Positions 35,329 to 50,763 of a stretch of DNA of 64,000 nucleotides are shown here, one piece after another. The first letter of the stretch is position 1, and each line of letters opens with the position of its first letter. The stretch lies in NCBI GenBank assembly GCA_041660745.1, contig JBAZVT010000002.1:15210-79209 (forward strand). Direction: 5' to 3'. A model generated the notes under the pieces. The model made no database searches, had not been told where the DNA came from, and was given only the letters and a program-made list of their open reading frames with translations. The position numbers and the translations under genes are program-made. The DNA is from Minisyncoccota bacterium. Lineage in GTDB: Bacteria; Patescibacteriota; Minisyncoccia; Phycocordibacterales; JBAZVT01.

Positions 35329-38300
35329 ATGGCGAAAGGCGTACAATATCTAAATACTATGCAAGAATACCTCAAAAATATTGCAGTTAAATTTTCTGAC
35401 CCACAAACAAGTGAAATGGGTTATCGAACTGATCTTGAGAATCTTTTGGTAAAGATTTTTCCAAAAGATAAAAAATATCAGATACATCATGATGCGAAAG
35501 CTGTTGGAGGAAATAAGCCCGATTTTGTTATTTTGAAAGATGGTGTGCCTCTGTTATATATAGAAGCGAAAGATATTGGTGTCAGTTTAGATAAAGTAGA
35601 AAAGAGTGATCAAATGGATCGTTATTTTGGTTATAATAATCTTGTGCTGACAGATTACGTTGAATTTCGTTTTTATCGAAACGGTGAAAGATATGGTGAG
35701 CCTGTTGCTATCTCTACATTTGATAAGACATATCGGACAATAGTAGAACTTAGTCATAATTTTTCTTTACTTTCAAAAACCATTGTGGATTTTGCTGCTT
35801 CCCACAAGGAGCCCATAAAACGTGGAAAACACTTAGCACAGATTATGGGAGGTAAAGCTCAGCGTATTCGGGATAATGTGAAGGAAATGCTCGTTGTGAC
35901 TTCAGATGCGTATGCCGACCTTCTTAAAATGCGTGATGTGGTCAAGGAACATCTCGTCTCAAGTCTTGACGATGAGTCGTTTGCCGATATGTATGCGCAG
36001 ACTCTGGTGTATGGACTTTTTGCCGCTCGGTACAATGATAAGACCGCAGATAATTTTTCACGTGCTGAGGCTCGAGAGCTTGTGCCTAAAACAAACCCAT
36101 TTCTTCGATCATTTTTTGATCATATAGCCGGAGAATCTTTTCCGGACAGACTTGGATTTATTGTTGATGAGTTATGTGAAGTTTTTACCCATGCAGATGT
36201 GCATAGATTAATGCATGAATATTTTACACAGGGAAAAATCTCTGGCGGGGTACATACGAGTCCTGATCCAGTCATCCATTTCTATGAAGATTTTCTGCGT
36301 GAGTATGATACAAAAAAGAAGATGGAAATGGGTGTTTTCTATACACCGCGCCCAGTCGTGCAGTTTATTGTGCGGGCAGTAGATAGTATTCTTAAAAGTG
36401 AATTTGGACTTGAAAAAGGTTTAACCGACACAACAAAAATTTCTGTTGAGAAAAAAGAAACGAACGAAAAAGGTAAAGAGGTAAAAGTTCAAAAAGAATA
36501 TCACAAAGTTCAAGTACTTGATGTAGCGACTGGTACGGGCACTTTTTTGAATGAAGTAATTACTCATATTTATAGTAGCTTTAAAGGTCAAGAAGGTGGG
36601 TGGCCTGCGTATGTTGAAAATGACCTTCTGCCACGACTACACGGCTTTGAGTTGATGATGGCTTCATATACTATTGCTCATTTGAAATTGGGTATGACAC
36701 TTCATGATACTGGCGCTGGGGGAATTAATAAAAGATTGGGTGTTTATTTAACAAATACACTTGAAGAGGCAAAAAATTCCATATGGGGTAATAATAGCTT
36801 ATTTGTGGGTGTGCAAGAAAGTATCACCAAAGAGGCAATTGAGGCTTCGCGCGTTAAGTCAGATTATCCGATAATGTGTGTAATTGGAAACCCGCCATAT
36901 TCCGGCATTTCTATGAACAGGCATTATACAGATAATAATGTGTATAAAGTGGAACCGGGAGGCTTGCAGAAGCTTCAAGAGAAGAAAAATTGGCTTGATG
37001 ATGATTATGTAAAATTTATTAGATTTGCAGAAAGTTTGGTTGAGAAGAATGGTGAGGGGGTCGTGGGAATGATTACTGCACATGGATATATTGATAATCC
37101 TACGTTTCGTGGGATGCGTTGGCATTTAAGGAAAACCTTTGACAAGATTTATGTTATTGATTTGCATGGAAATAGTAACAAAAAAGAAACTGCTCCCGAT
37201 GGCGGAAAAGATGAAAATGTTTTTGATATTAAAACGGGAGTTTCAATGATCTTGGCAATAAAAAATTCTCCCGATGTAAAAAGTAAGAAACTCGGGCAAG
37301 TTTATCAAACTGATTTTTATGGATTGCGAGAAAGTAAATATGAACGCTTGGATGTAGAAAGTATTGAGTCAATTAAATGGAACGAATTACCTGAAAATAC
37401 GGAAGTCTGGCGTGTTGAAGGTAAAGGAAAAAGTGAATACCAGAAAGGCTTTTCTGTTGCAGAATTGTTTCCTAAAAATACCACAGGGATAGTCACTATG
37501 GGGGATAGTTTTATCGTTGACAAAGACAAAGAAATTCTTACAAAGAGAGTTCGGGAATTTTTGTATAACAACGTTTTAGAAAATGAATTAAAGTTTAAAT
37601 ATAATCTTGGTAAAAACTATGCAAAGTGGGTTATTGATAATAAGAAAAAAATTCAAGATGATCCAAGTAAAATAGCTTCACTTTTGTATCGTCCTTTTGA
37701 TAGTAGATATACTTATTTTGATAAAAATTTAGTATGGAGAACACGCGATCAGGTTATGATTCAACTAGTTAATAGGGAAAATATTGCTTTCATTGCCTCT
37801 CGGATAAACAGGCAGGCTAGTCTTGGATACTTCTTTGTAACGAAGACTCTTACAGATTTTCATGTTTTAGACAATGCTCAAGATTCAACTTCAGTTTTTC
37901 CTCTTTATCTTTACGACGAACGAGGAGAAAAGATTCCAAACATTAATAAGGCAATTTGGCAAAAAATAAATGAACTAGTGGGAGAGACTATTCCTGAAAA
38001 TATTTTGGACTATGTTTACGCGTACTTACATTCACCGAATTATCGCGATAAGTATAAAGAGTTTCTAAAGATAGATTTTCCTCGTGTTCCATTCCCTAAA
38101 AATAAGGAAGAGTTCTGGAATCTTGTCCCGCTCGGTACAAAACTTCGTGAGCTGCATTTAATGACTTCGTCAGAGTGCAATAAGCTTATAACCACATATC
38201 CTGTAACTGGGGGCGATGTCGTAGAAAAAATAAAATACGAGAAAGAGAAAGTATATATTAATAATACGCAGTATTTTGGGAATGTCCCTAAAGTCGCTTG

Positions 38301-38463
38301 GGATTTCTATATTGGGGGTTATCAACCTGCTCAGAAATGGCTTAAAGATCGTAAGGATAAAAAACTTTCAAATGAAGATATCGAACACTATCAAAAAATG
38401 ATTGTGGTATTGGTGGAAACCGATAGAATCATGAAAGAAATCGATAAAACTTTTGAAAATTAA
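35329..38463 (+). CDS. Type IIG/IIL restriction-modification enzyme (fused PD-ExK endonuclease + gamma-class N6-adenine MTase; MmeI/Eco57I-like)
   Basis: N-terminal PD…EAK (GGNKPDFVILKDGVPLLYIEAKD), MTase motif IV NPPY (VIGNPPYSG), motif I-like DVATGTGTFL; 1044 aa. Confidence 0.8.
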   Translation: MAKGVQYLNTMQEYLKNIAVKFSDPQTSEMGYRTDLENLLVKIFPKDKKYQIHHDAKAVGGNKPDFVILKDGVPLLYIEAKDIGVSLDKVEKSDQMDRYFGYNNLVLTDYVEFRFYRNGERYGEPVAISTFDKTYRTIVELSHNFSLLSKTIVDFAASHKEPIKRGKHLAQIMGGKAQRIRDNVKEMLVVTSDAYADLLKMRDVVKEHLVSSLDDESFADMYAQTLVYGLFAARYNDKTADNFSRAEARELVPKTNPFLRSFFDHIAGESFPDRLGFIVDELCEVFTHADVHRLMHEYFTQGKISGGVHTSPDPVIHFYEDFLREYDTKKKMEMGVFYTPRPVVQFIVRAVDSILKSEFGLEKGLTDTTKISVEKKETNEKGKEVKVQKEYHKVQVLDVATGTGTFLNEVITHIYSSFKGQEGGWPAYVENDLLPRLHGFELMMASYTIAHLKLGMTLHDTGAGGINKRLGVYLTNTLEEAKNSIWGNNSLFVGVQESITKEAIEASRVKSDYPIMCVIGNPPYSGISMNRHYTDNNVYKVEPGGLQKLQEKKNWLDDDYVKFIRFAESLVEKNGEGVVGMITAHGYIDNPTFRGMRWHLRKTFDKIYVIDLHGNSNKKETAPDGGKDENVFDIKTGVSMILAIKNSPDVKSKKLGQVYQTDFYGLRESKYERLDVESIESIKWNELPENTEVWRVEGKGKSEYQKGFSVAELFPKNTTGIVTMGDSFIVDKDKEILTKRVREFLYNNVLENELKFKYNLGKNYAKWVIDNKKKIQDDPSKIASLLYRPFDSRYTYFDKNLVWRTRDQVMIQLVNRENIAFIASRINRQASLGYFFVTKTLTDFHVLDNAQDSTSVFPLYLYDERGEKIPNINKAIWQKINELVGETIPENILDYVYAYLHSPNYRDKYKEFLKIDFPRVPFPKNKEEFWNLVPLGTKLRELHLMTSSECNKLITTYPVTGGDVVEKIKYEKEKVYINNTQYFGNVPKVAWDFYIGGYQPAQKWLKDRKDKKLSNEDIEHYQKMIVVLVETDRIMKEIDKTFEN

Positions 38464-38523: not shown

Positions 38524-39378
38524 ATGAAACTAGAGGTGATTCAACAATACTTGGGAAAGTTTGATCAATATGTGCATAAGGCTGGTGACGCTGAGTTCTG
38601 TTTTGCCAGAGATTTGCAGGGTTTGTTGGGATATACAAAATGGGATAACTTTTTAAATGTTATAGAAAAAGCAAAGATTGCCTGTAAGAATTCCGGTGGT
38701 AGTATTGATGAAAATTTTGCGTTTACCACGAGGCTTGTAGAGATGCCTAATGGTGGAACAAAGGATGCAGAGGATTATTTTCTTTCTAGATACGCATGTT
38801 ATCTTGTTGCACAAAATGGTGACTCGTCAAAAGAGCCGGTTGCTTTTGCAATGAGCTACTTTGCTGTTCAAACGCGAAAACAAGAAATTCTTGAAAAGAA
38901 GATTGAGGAAATTGAAAGGTTGCAGGCAAGAAATAAATTAAGTTTGTCAGAAAAGGAGTTATCTGGCGTTGTATATGAAAGAGGGGTTGATGGTCAAGGT
39001 TTTGCTGTGATTAGAAGTAAGGGAGACCAGGCACTTTTTGGTGGAAAAACTACCGCTGAAATGAAGAATAAGTATAAGGTCTCAAATTCTAGAGCGCTGG
39101 CAGATTTTTTACCTACCATTACAATAAAGGCGAAAGATTTTGCTAATGAAATTACCATTTTTAATGTTAAAAAGAATTCTGGTTTAAGAGGGGTAAATAG
39201 CATTACGAATGAACATGTCAAAAATAATAAAGATGTCCGAGACTTGTTGAAGAAAAGAGATATAATTCCCGAAAATCTCCCTCCTGAAGAAGATATTCAG
39301 AAATTAAGAAGAAGAATTGATTCTCAGGGTAAAAATATTTTAAAAGAAGTGGGTGGTAAAAGAAATGATCGGGGATAA
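38524..39378 (+). CDS. dinD: DNA-damage-inducible protein D (DinD family)
   Basis: LSRYACYLVAQNGDS…FAVQTRKQE closely parallels E. coli DinD LSRYACYLVVQNGDP…FAIQTRRQE. Confidence 0.85.
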   Translation: MKLEVIQQYLGKFDQYVHKAGDAEFCFARDLQGLLGYTKWDNFLNVIEKAKIACKNSGGSIDENFAFTTRLVEMPNGGTKDAEDYFLSRYACYLVAQNGDSSKEPVAFAMSYFAVQTRKQEILEKKIEEIERLQARNKLSLSEKELSGVVYERGVDGQGFAVIRSKGDQALFGGKTTAEMKNKYKVSNSRALADFLPTITIKAKDFANEITIFNVKKNSGLRGVNSITNEHVKNNKDVRDLLKKRDIIPENLPPEEDIQKLRRRIDSQGKNILKEVGGKRNDRG

Positions 39379-42808: not shown

Positions 42809-43312
42809 ATGTCCAGAAGAAAAAAATTCATTATTATTGTGGTATTCTTAACCTGTATTGTTGGATATGGGTCTCTTCATGTTAGAGATAATTTACTTTC
42901 TCCTACAAACAACACAGTGCCGGTAGTCCCTGTATACAACGGCCCACTGGTGCAAGTGGGTATGGTTGAGATACCGGTAGAGGTGGCTTCAAGTTCAGAC
43001 GCGATTATTAAGGGTTTATCAAATCGTGATTTTCTTAAGCCGCAGAAAGGGATGTTCTTTACTTTTTCTCAACCAGCCCGTTACAGGTTTTGGATGAAAG
43101 ATATGAATTTTCCCCTCGATATTTTGTGGATTCGGGAAGGAAGAGTTGTTGATATGCACAAGATGATCCCGGCAGATTTTGACCCACTGAAACCGGTTTT
43201 TTACTCCCCAGATTTCCCAGCTCAATTTGTGCTTGAGGTTAATGCTGGCTTTATTGATACTAACGGAATTAAGGTGGGTGATCCTGTTTTCACTAAGAAT
43301 TTGGATAAATAG
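42809..43312 (+). CDS. DUF192 family protein
   Basis: FPLDILWIREGRVVDMHKMIP…FVLEVNAGF…GDPV. Confidence 0.7.
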   Translation: MSRRKKFIIIVVFLTCIVGYGSLHVRDNLLSPTNNTVPVVPVYNGPLVQVGMVEIPVEVASSSDAIIKGLSNRDFLKPQKGMFFTFSQPARYRFWMKDMNFPLDILWIREGRVVDMHKMIPADFDPLKPVFYSPDFPAQFVLEVNAGFIDTNGIKVGDPVFTKNLDK

Positions 43313-43314
43313 AC

Positions 43315-45495
43315 ATGGAAATACTGAAAGCAAAACATAAGGATAAGGCATGGTGGAATAGATTTGTAAGGGAGAACTATCCGCCCATAGGAGCTTTCAT
43401 GCAGACGTGGGAGTGGGGTAATTTTAAAAAAGGGGAAGGAAGGAAGGTGGAGAGGTTTTATGTCAGAGATCAATCAAAAATAGTCGCTGTTTTTACTCTT
43501 GTTGAATACAAACTTCCGCTCGGGTTTTTATACGGATACGCTCCTCGAGGGCCTGTAGTCGAAAAAAATTATGCGACGGATGGCTTTGTGGCGGTTCTGG
43601 CAAGAGAAATTAGTGTATGGGCAAGAAAGGCTTTTCCAAAACTTTTATTTATAAGACTAGAGCCCCCGTATTCTCACCTAGGATCCGAGCAACGTGGACA
43701 GCACTTTCATATCCCAGACTTTTATATACAACCTCGTCACAACCACGCCGTTCTACTTGATAAACCAGAGGTGGAAATTATTGCCGGTTTTCACTCGTCG
43801 ACACGTTCAAACATACACAGAGCAGAGAACCGCGGAGTGAGAGTCGTTGTTAAAAATCACGGGAAGGAAGACTGCTACAGTCCTTTTCGGAAGATTGGAG
43901 GTGACACCATACAAAGAAATGATGGCAAGAATTTGTATCCATCCGTCAGTTACTTCGAGTCTTTTTTCAAAACTTTTTTACCATTTGAAACGAAACATAA
44001 TCCCGATACTTTAACGGTCGTGACATTTTTTGGATACCAACATGATGATTTGGCTGCGGTGCATTTTGTTCTGTTTTTTGCTGATACCGCCACATATCTA
44101 TATGGCGCATCAAGCACTGCCCATCTACAGTCGAAGGTGACTACGTATCTTCACTGGTCAGCGATGCAAGAGGCAAAAAAACATGGAATGAAGTACTATG
44201 ATCTCGGAGGAATCGATGAAAAACTGTGGCCTTCGCTTACGAAATTTAAGCGGCAATTTAAGGGTGAAGAATTTAATTACATTGGAAATATTGATTTACC
44301 ACTTAGGCCATTCTTGTATAGCATATTTAACAGTATGCAGTGGGCGAGAAAAACATTTCACCACGTACGAGAGACCCAGAATTTACAATCAAAAAAAGTA
44401 TTTGTTGCGGTATTTGTTGTGGTGCTTTTGACGGGTACAACTTTTCTCTCTCATTATTTTTGGGGCGACGATTCTCGAGATCGGCGCGTAGAGACCAGGT
44501 GTCTGGCATATCCTGCTGCATGCTCGATTGCAGCCGCTGCAATTCCTGAAGAGAAAATTTTATCTACGGACTATCATGTTTTTCAAACATTTAATAATTG
44601 TGCTCCCGCAGCCCTATCAATGGCACTCTCATATTATGGAATTCTAGACAGTCAGGAAAAAATTGCTCAGGATCTACGTCCGCATAATAATTCAACCGGT
44701 GACAATGATGATAAATCTACGCCGCCACAGGAATTGGCAGATTATGTAAAACAATACGGGCTCATTCCGTATTTTCGTCCGCATGGTAATGTTGATGTCT
44801 TAAAACAATTTCTTGCAAAAGATATCCCCGTTGTTGTGCGTACGTTGCTCTATGAAGATAAAGATTATGCACACTATCGTGTGATTAAGGGGTATGATGA
44901 CGTTAAACAGGAGTTTATTCAGGATGACTCGCTTGAAGGTAAAAATCTAGCATATTCATACGAGGATTTCCTGTTGCTGTGGAAGCCATTTAACTATGCA
45001 TATCTCGTTTTTGCTACCGCAGAGAACCAAAAAGAAATAGAAGAAATTCTGGGTGAAGATGTTCAGATTTCGACAGCATGGATGAATGCCCGTTTTGATG
45101 CGGAAAAAACATTGAGCTTATCGCCCAGCGATGTGCAGGCACGTTTTAATCTCGCTGTTGCGCTTTATTATCTTGGTGATCATGCTGCCTCGGCTATAGA
45201 GTTTGAGAAGGTAGAACAAAGGCTTTCTGCACATATGTTGTGGTATCAAATAGAGCCTATTGAAAATTATTTTATGCTAAAGAATTACGAAAAAGTATTT
45301 TCTTTGTCCGATTCCATTCTAAATAATAACAACCGTGCATTTTCGGAGCTCTATATATTACGTGGTAAGAGTTATTTGAACTTAGGGAGAAAGGATATGG
45401 CAAAAGGTGAGTTTAAGAAAGCCGTCTACTTTAATACTAATTCGGAGGCTGCTCGAGACGCACTAAACTCTGTTAGTGATGTGAGTGCTAGGTAA
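43315..45495 (+). CDS. FemAB-family peptidyltransferase fused to TM segment, C39-like cysteine peptidase domain and TPR repeats
   Basis: N-terminal FemAB-like ~350 aa; TM ~aa 360; FNNCAPAALSMALSYYG Cys-peptidase motif; C-terminal TPR-like helices. Confidence 0.6.
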   Translation: MEILKAKHKDKAWWNRFVRENYPPIGAFMQTWEWGNFKKGEGRKVERFYVRDQSKIVAVFTLVEYKLPLGFLYGYAPRGPVVEKNYATDGFVAVLAREISVWARKAFPKLLFIRLEPPYSHLGSEQRGQHFHIPDFYIQPRHNHAVLLDKPEVEIIAGFHSSTRSNIHRAENRGVRVVVKNHGKEDCYSPFRKIGGDTIQRNDGKNLYPSVSYFESFFKTFLPFETKHNPDTLTVVTFFGYQHDDLAAVHFVLFFADTATYLYGASSTAHLQSKVTTYLHWSAMQEAKKHGMKYYDLGGIDEKLWPSLTKFKRQFKGEEFNYIGNIDLPLRPFLYSIFNSMQWARKTFHHVRETQNLQSKKVFVAVFVVVLLTGTTFLSHYFWGDDSRDRRVETRCLAYPAACSIAAAAIPEEKILSTDYHVFQTFNNCAPAALSMALSYYGILDSQEKIAQDLRPHNNSTGDNDDKSTPPQELADYVKQYGLIPYFRPHGNVDVLKQFLAKDIPVVVRTLLYEDKDYAHYRVIKGYDDVKQEFIQDDSLEGKNLAYSYEDFLLLWKPFNYAYLVFATAENQKEIEEILGEDVQISTAWMNARFDAEKTLSLSPSDVQARFNLAVALYYLGDHAASAIEFEKVEQRLSAHMLWYQIEPIENYFMLKNYEKVFSLSDSILNNNNRAFSELYILRGKSYLNLGRKDMAKGEFKKAVYFNTNSEAARDALNSVSDVSAR

Positions 45496-46704: not shown

Positions 46705-47319
46705 ATGGGAAATTTCAATCGCGGAGGTGGAGGAGGTGGTGGATTCGGTGGAAACAGAGGCGGTGGCGGATTTAGTGGTGGACGACCAAGTTTCCAAAAG
46801 AAACCATGGGGTGGAAATGGAGGTGGTGGATTTGATAAACCGATGTTTAAGGCTGTTTGTGGCGAGTGTGATAAGCCTTGTGAGGTTCCTTTCCGTCCAA
46901 CCGGTGAACGCCCAGTGTATTGCAGAGAATGTTTTGCAGCAAATGGAGGTCCAACTGCAGGCAGAACAGACAGTGCTCCACAGAGAAGTTTTCACGGAGC
47001 TCCAGCAAAGCCAAGTTTCGATAATTCTAACAGAGGATCTGGTGAGGTAAAAAGTGGTTCCGATGTGTCCAGGATGATAGAGGCTCTTTCTTCAAAGATT
47101 GATAAGCTTGTACAAGCAGTTGAAGCACTTTCACCAAAGAAACCAACTCAAGAGAAGGTTGTTGCTGTGGAAGTAAAGAAGGCTCCAGTTGCAGAAACAA
47201 AAAAAGAAGATGCTCCTAAAAAGGAACATGCAAAAGGTTTTCTCAAGAAAGAAATTGCAGCAGCGGTTTCTCCAAAGAAAGTCTTAAAGAAAAAGGTTGT
47301 AGCAAAGAAGGGTAAATAA
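46705..47319 (+). CDS. Gly-rich protein with CxxC-x17-CxxC zinc ribbon and Lys-rich tail
   Basis: CGECDKPCEVPFRPTGERPVYCRECF; poly-Gly N-terminus. Confidence 0.6.
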   Translation: MGNFNRGGGGGGGFGGNRGGGGFSGGRPSFQKKPWGGNGGGGFDKPMFKAVCGECDKPCEVPFRPTGERPVYCRECFAANGGPTAGRTDSAPQRSFHGAPAKPSFDNSNRGSGEVKSGSDVSRMIEALSSKIDKLVQAVEALSPKKPTQEKVVAVEVKKAPVAETKKEDAPKKEHAKGFLKKEIAAAVSPKKVLKKKVVAKKGK

Positions 47320-49131: not shown

Positions 49132-50763
49132 ATGTTTACAAAAAAAAGTTTCAGTAGTAGTTCACCTCGTCCAAGTACAGGTGTGCGCAAGCCTCGTGCA
49201 GTTTCTGCAAGCGGAGCTCATCGTAGTTCAGCTCGTTTCGGCGTGTCTGCTCCTGTGGGAAATATTAATCGTAATACCAGCCAAACTCGTTTTGGTTCAG
49301 CAAGCCCTCGTCCAGGATATGGAAGTGGTTCTTCAAGGTCTGCATCTTTTTCTTCAGGTGCAAGTAGTTTTAAAGGCTCATACACATCTACACCAACACA
49401 TTCAAGCCATGCTAGTCATGGAATATCTGTGCCTCGCGTAGGAAATAGTGCACCAGCACGTTTCAGTCCTCGCACCTCAAGTGGAAGCAGTTTTAGTTCT
49501 AGTTCATCACGCCCAGCGTTCCACGGTGGAAGCGCTCGACCAGCTATGCGATACGGTTCTGGCAGTTCTGCACGCAGTGGTGGATATGAAAGACGCACAG
49601 GTAGAGGAGGTGGTTCATATGGATCTTCAGGACGCGGAGGAAAGGGAAGAGGATTCGGCGGTCAGAGTATTCCCGTATCTCGTTATATCAACAAAGCAGA
49701 AATCACAGAGGTGATGGAAAAATTTGTTCCAGAGCATGCGTTTTCAGATTTTGCTGTTGAAGCACGTTTGAAAGCAAACATTGCGGCTCGTGGGTATGTT
49801 ACACCAACTCCAATTCAGGATAAAATTATTCCACACATCTTGCGTGGATCTGATGTGGTGGGTATTGCAAACACTGGTACAGGTAAAACTGCAGCGTTTC
49901 TTATTCCTCTCATCAACAAAGTTCTTCTTAATCCAAAAGAAAATATTTTGATTGTTGCTCCAACACGCGAGCTTGCAATTCAGATTGAGAGTGAATTAAA
50001 GATATTTACTCCAACATTAAAAATGTTTTCAACATGCTGCGTTGGTGGTGCGCCAATCGGCAGACAAATGTCACAACTTCGTTATCCAAATAATTTTATT
50101 ATTGGTACACCAGGAAGAATAAAAGACTTGATGGAACGCCGATGTATTAATTTGTCCACATTCAATACTATTGTGTTGGATGAAGCAGATAGAATGCTTG
50201 ATATGGGATTTGTCGCAGACATGAAATACATGATGGCGAAAATGCCAGAGAAGCGTCACACACTGTTCTTCTCAGCAACCTTGTCAAAAGAAATTGAAGC
50301 CCTTATTTCTAGCTTCTTGAAAGATCCCGTTCGCATTTCTGTGAAGACACAGGATGTGTCTAAGAACGTTGATCAGGATATTGTGAAAACTCAAGGTAAG
50401 TCAAAAGTAGATGTATTGTTTGATTTACTTAAACAAACAGATTTCAAAAAAGTGCTTATTTTTGGCCGTACAAAACATGGTGTTCAGCGTCTCTCAGAGT
50501 TGCTTGAACAAAATGGCTTTAGTGCTGAATCTATTCACGGTGACAAGCCACACAATCGTCGCCAGAAGGCGCTCGGTCTCTTTAAAGAGAATCGTGTCCA
50601 GGTGCTCGTTGCAACAGACGTTGCTGCTCGTGGATTGGATATTGATGGTATTAGTCACGTGATCAACTATGATTTGCCTGCGACCTTTGATGATTATGTT
50701 CACCGTATCGGACGAACCGGACGTGGAGATAAGAAAGGGAAAGCTTTAACTTTTATAGACTAG
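49132..50763 (+). CDS. DEAD-box ATP-dependent RNA helicase with N-terminal Ser/Arg/Gly-rich low-complexity extension
   Basis: Q-motif/PTPIQ, GTGKT, DEAD (VLDEADRM), SAT, HRIGRTGR; first ~180 aa low complexity. Confidence 0.85.
   Translation: MFTKKSFSSSSPRPSTGVRKPRAVSASGAHRSSARFGVSAPVGNINRNTSQTRFGSASPRPGYGSGSSRSASFSSGASSFKGSYTSTPTHSSHASHGISVPRVGNSAPARFSPRTSSGSSFSSSSSRPAFHGGSARPAMRYGSGSSARSGGYERRTGRGGGSYGSSGRGGKGRGFGGQSIPVSRYINKAEITEVMEKFVPEHAFSDFAVEARLKANIAARGYVTPTPIQDKIIPHILRGSDVVGIANTGTGKTAAFLIPLINKVLLNPKENILIVAPTRELAIQIESELKIFTPTLKMFSTCCVGGAPIGRQMSQLRYPNNFIIGTPGRIKDLMERRCINLSTFNTIVLDEADRMLDMGFVADMKYMMAKMPEKRHTLFFSATLSKEIEALISSFLKDPVRISVKTQDVSKNVDQDIVKTQGKSKVDVLFDLLKQTDFKKVLIFGRTKHGVQRLSELLEQNGFSAESIHGDKPHNRRQKALGLFKENRVQVLVATDVAARGLDIDGISHVINYDLPATFDDYVHRIGRTGRGDKKGKALTFID

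Follow-up and report, generated by a model that had tools for sequence, protein, structure and literature searches.

A FemX-like transferase joined by a membrane anchor to a predicted extracytoplasmic C39_2-TPR peptidase in a patescibacterial genome

One gene of a Minisyncoccota bacterium raises the question of why a transferase of the FemAB family should be joined through a membrane segment to a cysteine peptidase, and whether the two halves serve a common purpose. The window, by which we mean the whole stretch of 64,000 nucleotides analysed here (assembly GCA_041660745.1, contig JBAZVT010000002.1), carries on its forward strand an open reading frame (ORF) at 43315–45495 that starts with ATG, encodes 726 amino acids and is uninterrupted up to the stop codon, which is included in the end coordinate. 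Its product is identical to NCBI MFA6094413.1, annotated there as 'FemA/FemB family protein', and is the only member of its own 90% cluster. An earlier note, made from the letters of this DNA, had read the ORF as a FemAB-type transferase, a transmembrane (TM) segment, a C39-like peptidase and TPR helices, and Pfam and NCBIfam profiles, hydropathy and AlphaFold agree with that reading. All three domain assignments, like the TM segment, are real and far above chance; the gene encodes a genuine bitopic membrane protein from a bacterium of the Paceibacteria type (candidate phyla radiation, CPR, or Patescibacteria), and FemAB–TM–C39_2–TPR is a new domain architecture assembled from known kinds of domain. 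We are highly confident of this architecture and topology taken alone. The explanation of the whole that we favour, with modest confidence, is that a FemX-like transferase has been joined end-to-end to an exported cell-wall C39_2–TPR peptidase. No paper on the FemAB–TM–C39_2–TPR combination was found in the literature, nor any characterised C39_2–TPR or FemAB–C39 protein.

FemAB enzymes require aminoacyl-tRNA, and the N-terminal part of the protein (43315–44364, residues 1–350) is a FemX-like, tandem-GNAT transferase domain of this kind that is predicted to be cytoplasmic. Both enzyme assignments of the earlier note held when set against profile hidden Markov models, the FemAB domain scoring 115.8 bits and the peptidase 54.8 bits against a Pfam cutoff of 24. 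For the FemAB half this match (PF02388) has an E-value of 2.7e-33, and Acetyltransf_6 also matches (E 1.2e-9); among PDB sequences it matches Staphylococcus aureus FemX (1.6e-10) and Weissella FemX (1e-5, residues 16–336). The AlphaFold2 model exceeds a predicted local distance difference test score (pLDDT) of 90 across most of residues 1–320. Searched with Foldseek, the full-length model (pLDDT 87.4; predicted TM-score, pTM, 0.53) returned FemX structures first (6snr, 1ne9 and 4ii9; E about 1e-14, target TM-score 0.74–0.75), followed by other aminoacyl-tRNA-dependent transferases, including FemA and the synthase domain of MprF; the fold is that of FemX. In a HMMER alignment to 1NE9, Lys38, Tyr213 and Phe311–Lys312 pair with FemX Lys36, Tyr215 and Phe304–Lys305, which we take to be important residues of the Weissella enzyme; FemX Arg211 is not conserved in the fusion protein. 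The NCBIfam FemX equivalog model NF047883 gave 52.3 bits (E 5.1e-14) against a cutoff of 500, and a weak match (2.6e-5) was seen to the NCBIfam PEP-CTERM-associated FemAB family. The N-terminal half is a FemAB family member and not an equivalog of the characterised Weissella FemX.

The C-terminal half begins with a Peptidase_C39_2 papain-like cysteine peptidase domain (44551–45024, residues ~413–570) and ends with a TPR-like, all-helical domain (45028–45474, residues ~572–720). The Peptidase_C39_2 match (PF13529, E 2e-14) covers residues 424–539 and contains the catalytic set Gln424, Cys429 (codon 44599–44601), His520 and Asp538 of a papain-like fold. The motif FNNCAPAALSM, from which the earlier note had deduced a peptidase, lies at residues 426–436 and includes Cys429. 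In an alignment of 32 family members Gln424, Asn427, Cys429, His520, Asp538, Trp556 and Trp643 are invariant, and since the catalytic residues are among them the catalytic machinery is intact. The C-terminal domain just passes the cutoff of Pfam TPR_8 (26.5 bits against 25.7, E 5.8e-6), with further sub-threshold TPR models over residues 589–717, and it matches MamA and consensus TPR structures; it also bears a family-conserved LWYQ.EP motif that holds the invariant Trp643. A very confident AlphaFold model of residues 400–726 (pLDDT 94.3, pTM 0.91) places a domain of helical repeats after a papain-like alpha/beta domain, an arrangement with which Foldseek agrees. Its nearest structural neighbours are 3erv, PeiR, double-glycine peptidases and staphopain, with the pseudomurein cross-link endoisopeptidase PeiR as the top-ranked similarity.

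The earlier description of this domain as C39-type was right in naming a papain-like peptidase, but should read C39_2, as the features of the canonical bacteriocin-leader C39 are absent. The bacteriocin-processing family PF03412 scored 21.7 bits against a cutoff of 22, a borderline result, and no ABC transporter was found in the ORF or among its neighbours. A regular-expression scan of all small ORFs in the window, which is a weak test, found no double-glycine leader ORF. Together with the predicted extracytoplasmic location, these results rule out a canonical bacteriocin-leader peptidase. The NCBIfam PA2778 cysteine peptidase model NF033920 aligned over residues 424–635 with 34.5 bits against a cutoff of 150, and the NCBIfam PrsT TPR lipoprotein matched weakly. 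Judged by its profile scores, the middle domain is a member of Peptidase_C39_2, and neither a transporter-associated C39 nor a PA2778 equivalog. Peptidase_C39_2 is one of the catalytic domains listed for endolysins of Gram-positive phages (PMC8223927).

If the two halves are both enzymes, the question becomes on which side of the membrane each is found. Hydropathy identified one strong hydrophobic segment, residues 361–384 (44395–44466; Kyte–Doolittle 2.1), and no other above 1.4. The full-length model accords with this: beyond the confident FemAB region (1–320) lie a helix at 334–353, the TM helix at 357–382, a disordered linker at 383–412 and, from about residue 413, the C39–TPR half, with pLDDT below 50 at residues 373–406. 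Counted from the end of the hydrophobic segment, the disordered and presumably extracytoplasmic linker comprises residues 385–412 (44467–44550). The flanks of the helix carry net charges of +2 on the N-terminal and 0 on the C-terminal side, obeying the positive-inside rule. Stand-alone C39–TPR homologues have a short basic N-terminus, one TM helix, a variable linker (~25–60 aa, frequently Pro/Ser/Thr-rich) and then a conserved KIL..DYHVFQTFNNC block; because every one of them starts with the basic N-terminus and TM anchor, we take the C39–TPR side to be exported. A sister protein, P0002, is built differently and leads to the same result. Here the C39–TPR module starts directly after the last UppP/BacA helix, and as the BacA termini, including the C-terminus, are periplasmic in the crystal-structure paper (PMC5852022), the module should lie outside. 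The flank charges and the construction of the homologues thus predict a FemAB half inside and a C39–TPR half outside, the single-TM topology that the earlier note had envisaged.

The homologues also define how the join was made. Stand-alone FemAB orthologues (P0017, P0032, P0039; loci L002, L008, L009, L012) end at the equivalents of residues 350–355, and the stand-alone C39–TPR proteins P0019 and P0027 align from residues 360 and 364 with their own anchors included, the TM helix at 361–384 corresponding to the native signal anchor of such proteins. These end points imply that the fusion consists of a complete FemAB and a complete C39–TPR pre-protein lacking only its start codon, and it looks as if two neighbouring genes had simply lost the stop codon and the spacer that kept them apart. 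No start codon occurs at codons 355–362, and the only GTG/TTG codons sit within the TM helix. Separate translation of C39–TPR from an internal start is therefore ruled out, and the peptidase half is made only as part of the fusion. A promoter and terminator scan around the gene gave nothing above shuffled expectation.

It could be argued that the fusion is a sequencing or consensus error, through a lost stop codon or an indel in a run of seven adenines (A7), and that the organism has two genes. A single sequence is known, it comes from a metagenome-assembled genome, and the A7 homopolymer (44391–44397, codons 359–361) sits exactly at the domain junction. Against this, both halves are in one frame with no ambiguity, and a C39–TPR-like TM anchor follows in frame directly after the natural FemAB end. 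Removal of one A leads to a 371-aa FemAB-only product and addition of one to a 411-aa product; both changes truncate the protein and neither restores a C39–TPR start or recreates a separate C39–TPR gene, so a frameshift at A7 is ruled out as the cause of the fusion. A Logan contig from an independent assembly (SRR18595301) contains the whole gene and shows 100% identity across 5.7 kb, although it possibly derives from the same reads. We consider such an error very improbable. An assembly chimera is ruled out by the same contig together with the synteny between the neighbouring genes and those of L002. As a separate observation, the A7 tract lies precisely where a −1 slip would yield the 371-aa FemAB-only protein.

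How widespread is the fusion? The earlier note had called it unusual, and the searches of sequence clusters, loci and metagenomes were consistent in this respect, as no second FemAB–C39–TPR protein was found in any search made. HMMER against 1.84 billion cluster representatives returned 5190 matches, and among the best 150 only the query matched both halves, the others covering residues ~1–349 or ~400–721 only; 50% cluster representatives may hide architectures, and P0002 and P0003 were not among the representatives listed. A word-indexed search of 5.8 billion clusters gave no second fusion. Nor was there one among the best 80 of 217 GTDB species-representative loci, which came from a genome scan with a query alignment of 9 close sequences; a metagenome scan gave no fusion and one partial stand-alone relative (L089). 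Because the fusion was found once and looks like a simple gene join, physical coupling is no general feature of the system.

The case for a functional link between the halves comes instead from the genes around them. Immediately upstream of the fusion is a gene for a 167-aa DUF192 protein (42809–43312, forward strand; Pfam DUF192, 4.6e-27) with an N-terminal TM anchor, and as its stop lies 2 nt before the fusion ATG it is a likely operon partner. Within the clade of the window FemAB invariably has DUF192 as its partner, either encoded upstream or fused to it: DUF192–FemAB pairs or fusions were seen in L002, L003, L005, L008, L009, L012, L090 and L092, and in the window, L002, L008, L009 and L012 DUF192 has a gene of its own upstream. 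DUF192–FemAB fusions of about 480 aa (P0007, P0008, P0011, P0014) and fusions of a MurJ/PST flippase, DUF192 and FemAB of about 1000 aa (P0005, P0006, P0009, P0010, P0012, P0013) are both present; examples of DUF192–FemAB loci are L003 8001–11009, L090 6001–8958, L092 4460–7452 and L005 346–1788. The premise of the earlier note that FemAB enzymes normally stand alone thus fails in this clade, where FemAB commonly carries a TM anchor at its C-terminus or is fused to DUF192 or a MurJ-like flippase (P0004, P0005–P0014). The DUF192 domains present a topological conflict of their own: the copy in the window has an N-in signal anchor that would place its domain outside, and in the fusions no TM helix separates DUF192 from FemAB, so that both would share one side of the membrane, presumably the cytoplasmic one. 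Crude hydropathy gives 13–19 TM segments for the MurJ fusions. P0004 (451 aa, 50% identity), another membrane-tethered FemAB, ends in a TM helix and, after it, a predicted coiled-coil segment.

C39–TPR was found near DUF192–FemAB in eight contexts besides the window (L002, L003, L006, L008, L009, L012, L090 and L092), and across these nine contexts the proximity is kept through at least six orders and orientations. In L092 a MurJ-like gene is followed by DUF192–FemAB and, after a gap of 54 nt, by C39–TPR, which is the exact pre-fusion order. In L090 the order is reversed, with C39–TPR preceding MurJ–DUF192–FemAB by 27 nt; in L003 C39–TPR is convergent with MurJ–DUF192–FemAB, and in L008 and L012 with DUF192 followed by FemAB. 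C39–TPR and FemAB are co-directional and 1.9 kb apart in L009, and divergent with one gene between them in L006. In the sister genome that contains L002 (GCA_034680565.1), P0002 (4245–6029) is a 594-aa UppP/BacA–C39_2–TPR protein, 63% identical to the C-terminal half of the window protein, whose gene lies directly upstream of DUF192 and a stand-alone FemAB; the flanks of this locus (DUF1428 ... DEAD helicase) are syntenic with the window. An UppP gene also abuts the C39–TPR gene in L080. A neighbour-joining tree of C39–TPR modules groups the window with L002, L009, L008, L001, L051, L003, L012 and L080, and seven of the nine members of this clade have FemAB or UppP linkage. The main evidence that the halves are functionally linked is that their proximity persists through at least six arrangements, and the three different fusions (FemAB–C39TPR, UppP–C39TPR and MurJ–DUF192–FemAB) argue in the same direction. 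The coupling proposed by the earlier note therefore stands as a functional link, in view of the eight other shuffled contexts, and not as a general physical one. What weighs against the link is that L001, L051, L093 and L095, in or near the clade, are counter-examples.

The C39_2–TPR family was found on more than 200 species-representative genome contigs, and the 80 loci listed are essentially all from Patescibacteria; FemAB lies within 10 kb in only 4 of these 80 and is lacking outside the clade of the window. De novo clustering of neighbour families over 83 loci identified a TM-anchored S9/S33-type alpha/beta-hydrolase (~355 aa) as the most frequent neighbour (47/83). A TM-anchored YkuD L,D-transpeptidase-like protein (~198 aa) occurs in 24 of the 83, always divergent at position −1, and the catalytic SxGC[IV]RH is kept in all 24. 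This head-to-head pairing is found in Microgenomates-type Patescibacteria (L013, L014, L019–L021, L026 and others). Two further fusions were seen, of C39–TPR to LysM (P0163) and to glucose/sorbosone dehydrogenase (GSDH, PF07995; P0040, 697 aa). Separately, GSDH genes neighbour C39–TPR in 12 loci, for example L025 (223–1353). Of these partners, FemAB, UppP, YkuD and LysM all relate to peptidoglycan; the hydrolase and the dehydrogenase say nothing either way. In the window itself tblastn detected none of UppP, MurJ, YkuD, the alpha/beta-hydrolase or GSDH.

The halves might instead be functionally unrelated: C39–TPR would then be an exported protease of general use, in nutrient scavenging or in the maturation of secreted, pilin or S-layer proteins, that lies beside FemAB in one clade by chance, and the fusion a neutral accident. 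The fusion is a singleton, 76 of the 80 species-representative C39–TPR loci have no FemAB within 10 kb, and the commonest neighbour is the exported S9/S33-type hydrolase. TPR domains usually bind protein or peptide ligands. In L001 the C39–TPR gene lies beside pilin-like N_methyl, Peptidase_M3 and Peptidase_C25 genes, and a Microgenomates genome paper counts a secreted C39 among four secreted peptidases (PMC7143001). We nevertheless consider this unlikely, as DUF192–FemAB proximity has survived at least six rearrangements over nine contexts, and the independent UppP and LysM fusions together with YkuD adjacency indicate the wall. If the protein does process peptides, as the earlier note supposed, the gene context speaks for those of the cell wall and not for the maturation of secreted ones.

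A cell-envelope role could still concern a polymer other than peptidoglycan. The cluster of MOP flippase, DUF192, FemAB-like protein, C39–TPR and UppP might serve another undecaprenyl-linked polymer, such as an aminoacylated exopolysaccharide, a teichoic-acid-like polymer or an S-layer glycan, which the FemAB-like protein would aminoacylate. In favour of this, UppP serves all undecaprenyl-linked pathways, the fused flippase matches not only MurJ but also Polysacc_synt/PST models, the FemX equivalog cutoff was missed, and there are the weak NCBIfam matches to PEP-CTERM-associated FemAB and to PrsT TPR lipoprotein. However, the best sequence and structure matches are to the peptidoglycan enzymes FemX and FemA, the PEP-CTERM FemAB match being far weaker (2.6e-5 against 5.1e-14); no glycosyltransferase or polysaccharide genes lie beside the window gene, and the ties of the peptidase family to LysM and YkuD are peptidoglycan-specific. 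We regard another polymer as rather improbable.

We propose that two adjacent genes of a conserved cell-envelope cluster became fused end-to-end, and that both halves act on peptidoglycan peptides; the substrates of each half, and any benefit of the tether, we infer from family membership and gene context. Held at the cytoplasmic face by the TM helix, the FemX-like domain would take a peptidoglycan precursor, lipid-linked (or nucleotide-linked), and attach a branching amino acid to its stem peptide. Residues 361–384, once the signal anchor encoded by the gene downstream, would now serve as an internal N-in/C-out anchor. Once the precursor had been flipped and incorporated, the extracytoplasmic cysteine peptidase within the C-terminal 315 residues could cleave or trim peptide bonds of the wall, guided by the peptide-binding TPR domain packed on it. 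The most plausible target would be the branch or cross-bridge installed by FemAB, beside the enzymes of the lipid II cycle. A peptidoglycan endopeptidase role for C39–TPR has circumstantial support from the fusions to UppP and LysM, the FemAB and YkuD neighbours and the fold likeness to PeiR. As sister genomes keep the genes separate, the fusion is probably recent and either tolerated or mildly advantageous; it probably adds at most co-localization and a fixed (1:1) stoichiometry, and it is unlikely to be a mechanistic necessity.

A bolder variant is that C39–TPR is a cysteine transpeptidase or acyl-transferase which uses the amine of the FemAB-installed branch as acceptor, for wall cross-linking or protein attachment. 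Some papain-clan relatives, namely BtrH and phytochelatin synthase, are transpeptidases or ligases, but the nearest structural neighbours (3erv, PeiR, double-glycine peptidases and staphopain) are hydrolases or uncharacterised, and we think such an activity very doubtful. The version in which one polypeptide acts on the same lipid II from both sides, the outer cysteine enzyme being a transpeptidase or ligase that uses the FemX-installed branch, appears only marginally less doubtful. If it were true, Patescibacteria would have a papain-fold route to wall cross-linking or protein attachment that is independent of penicillin-binding proteins, and C39_2–TPR would be a new class of peptidoglycan-remodelling enzyme conserved across the radiation.

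The fusion is a Rosetta-stone clue: read alongside the joins to UppP and LysM and the gene neighbourhoods with FemAB and YkuD, it gives the C39_2–TPR family a testable role in the cell wall. Its value lies less in the single join than in the conserved cluster that it exposes: the cluster ties DUF192 to peptidoglycan branching, offers testable functions for C39_2–TPR and DUF192, and shows that membrane tethering of Fem-type transferases to the machinery of the lipid II cycle is routine in these reduced genomes. CPR cell-envelope biology is poorly understood, so a concrete biochemical hypothesis is useful, even if it will not surprise specialists.

Elsewhere the window carries the ordinary housekeeping genes of a small genome (DNA ligase, GatA, CTP synthase, RNase J, Cu-ATPase), with a GC content of about 40%. 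GC skew is positive in 32 of 32 consecutive 2-kb windows, giving a monotonic rise in cumulative skew, and the forward strand has most of the large ORFs; a strong strand asymmetry of a similar kind has been reported for a Microgenomates genome (PMC7143001). At 35329–38463 is a gene for a 1044-aa Type IIG restriction–modification enzyme (PADLOC REase_MTase_IIG, E 9e-281), and the gene after it (38524–39378) encodes 284 aa with a match to PDC-S13, a candidate defence family (E 6e-103). PADLOC returned no match for the fusion protein, and an anti-phage defence role for it was ruled out on that basis. Downstream, 46705–47319 encodes a 204-aa protein whose N-terminus is rich in Gly and which has a treble-clef zinc finger (zf_Tbcl_2) and a tail rich in Lys, and 49132–50763 a DEAD-box helicase with an N-terminal extension of ~180 aa rich in Ser, Gly and Arg.

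How, then, does the protein compare with systems already described? The peptidase half resembles several enzymes and is the same as none of them. The C39 domains of PCAT/AMS transporters (PCAT1, ComA, 6MPZ) are cytoplasmic, lie N-terminal to an ABC transporter and cleave after a double-glycine leader, whereas the C39_2 domain of the fusion is C-terminal to an N-in TM anchor and predicted to be extracytoplasmic. The putative C39-like peptidase 3ERV of Bacillus anthracis and the PA2778 family offer no relative with a proven substrate, and none is fused to FemAB. PeiW and PeiP act on pseudomurein cross-links (PMC4592898), which makes their activity an analogue of the cross-bridge cleavage proposed here; however, PeiR, PeiW and PeiP (MEROPS C71) belong to another Pfam/MEROPS family, are archaeal-virus lysins and not housekeeping enzymes, share 21% identity and lack TPR.

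For the transferase half the closest comparison is FemX/FmhB (Weissella viridescens FemX, 1NE9/4II9; S. aureus FemX, 6SNR), with which it has the Pfam family and the tandem-GNAT fold in common. Weissella FemX is of similar size (~350 aa, without a coiled-coil arm), but identity to FemX is only 22–23% and, unlike FemX, the FemAB half is tethered to the membrane at its C-terminus and runs on into an extracytoplasmic enzyme. Among the sister architectures of the clade are the MurJ-like–DUF192–FemAB proteins (P0005, P0006, P0012), with ~48% identity to the FemAB half. The sister architectures have the same modules and neighbourhood, each being fused to another partner of the lipid II cycle, and only the window protein joins both FemAB and C39–TPR. 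MprF, an aminoacyl-phosphatidylglycerol synthase and flippase, is likewise an aminoacyl-tRNA-dependent tandem-GNAT transferase fused to membrane machinery, in its case machinery that handles the lipid-linked product of its transferase, and it provides a precedent for membrane-fused Fem-like enzymes. It differs in that the partner is a flippase rather than an exported peptidase and the substrate a phospholipid, and the analogy suits the MurJ–DUF192–FemAB proteins of the clade (P0005) better than it does the fusion described here.

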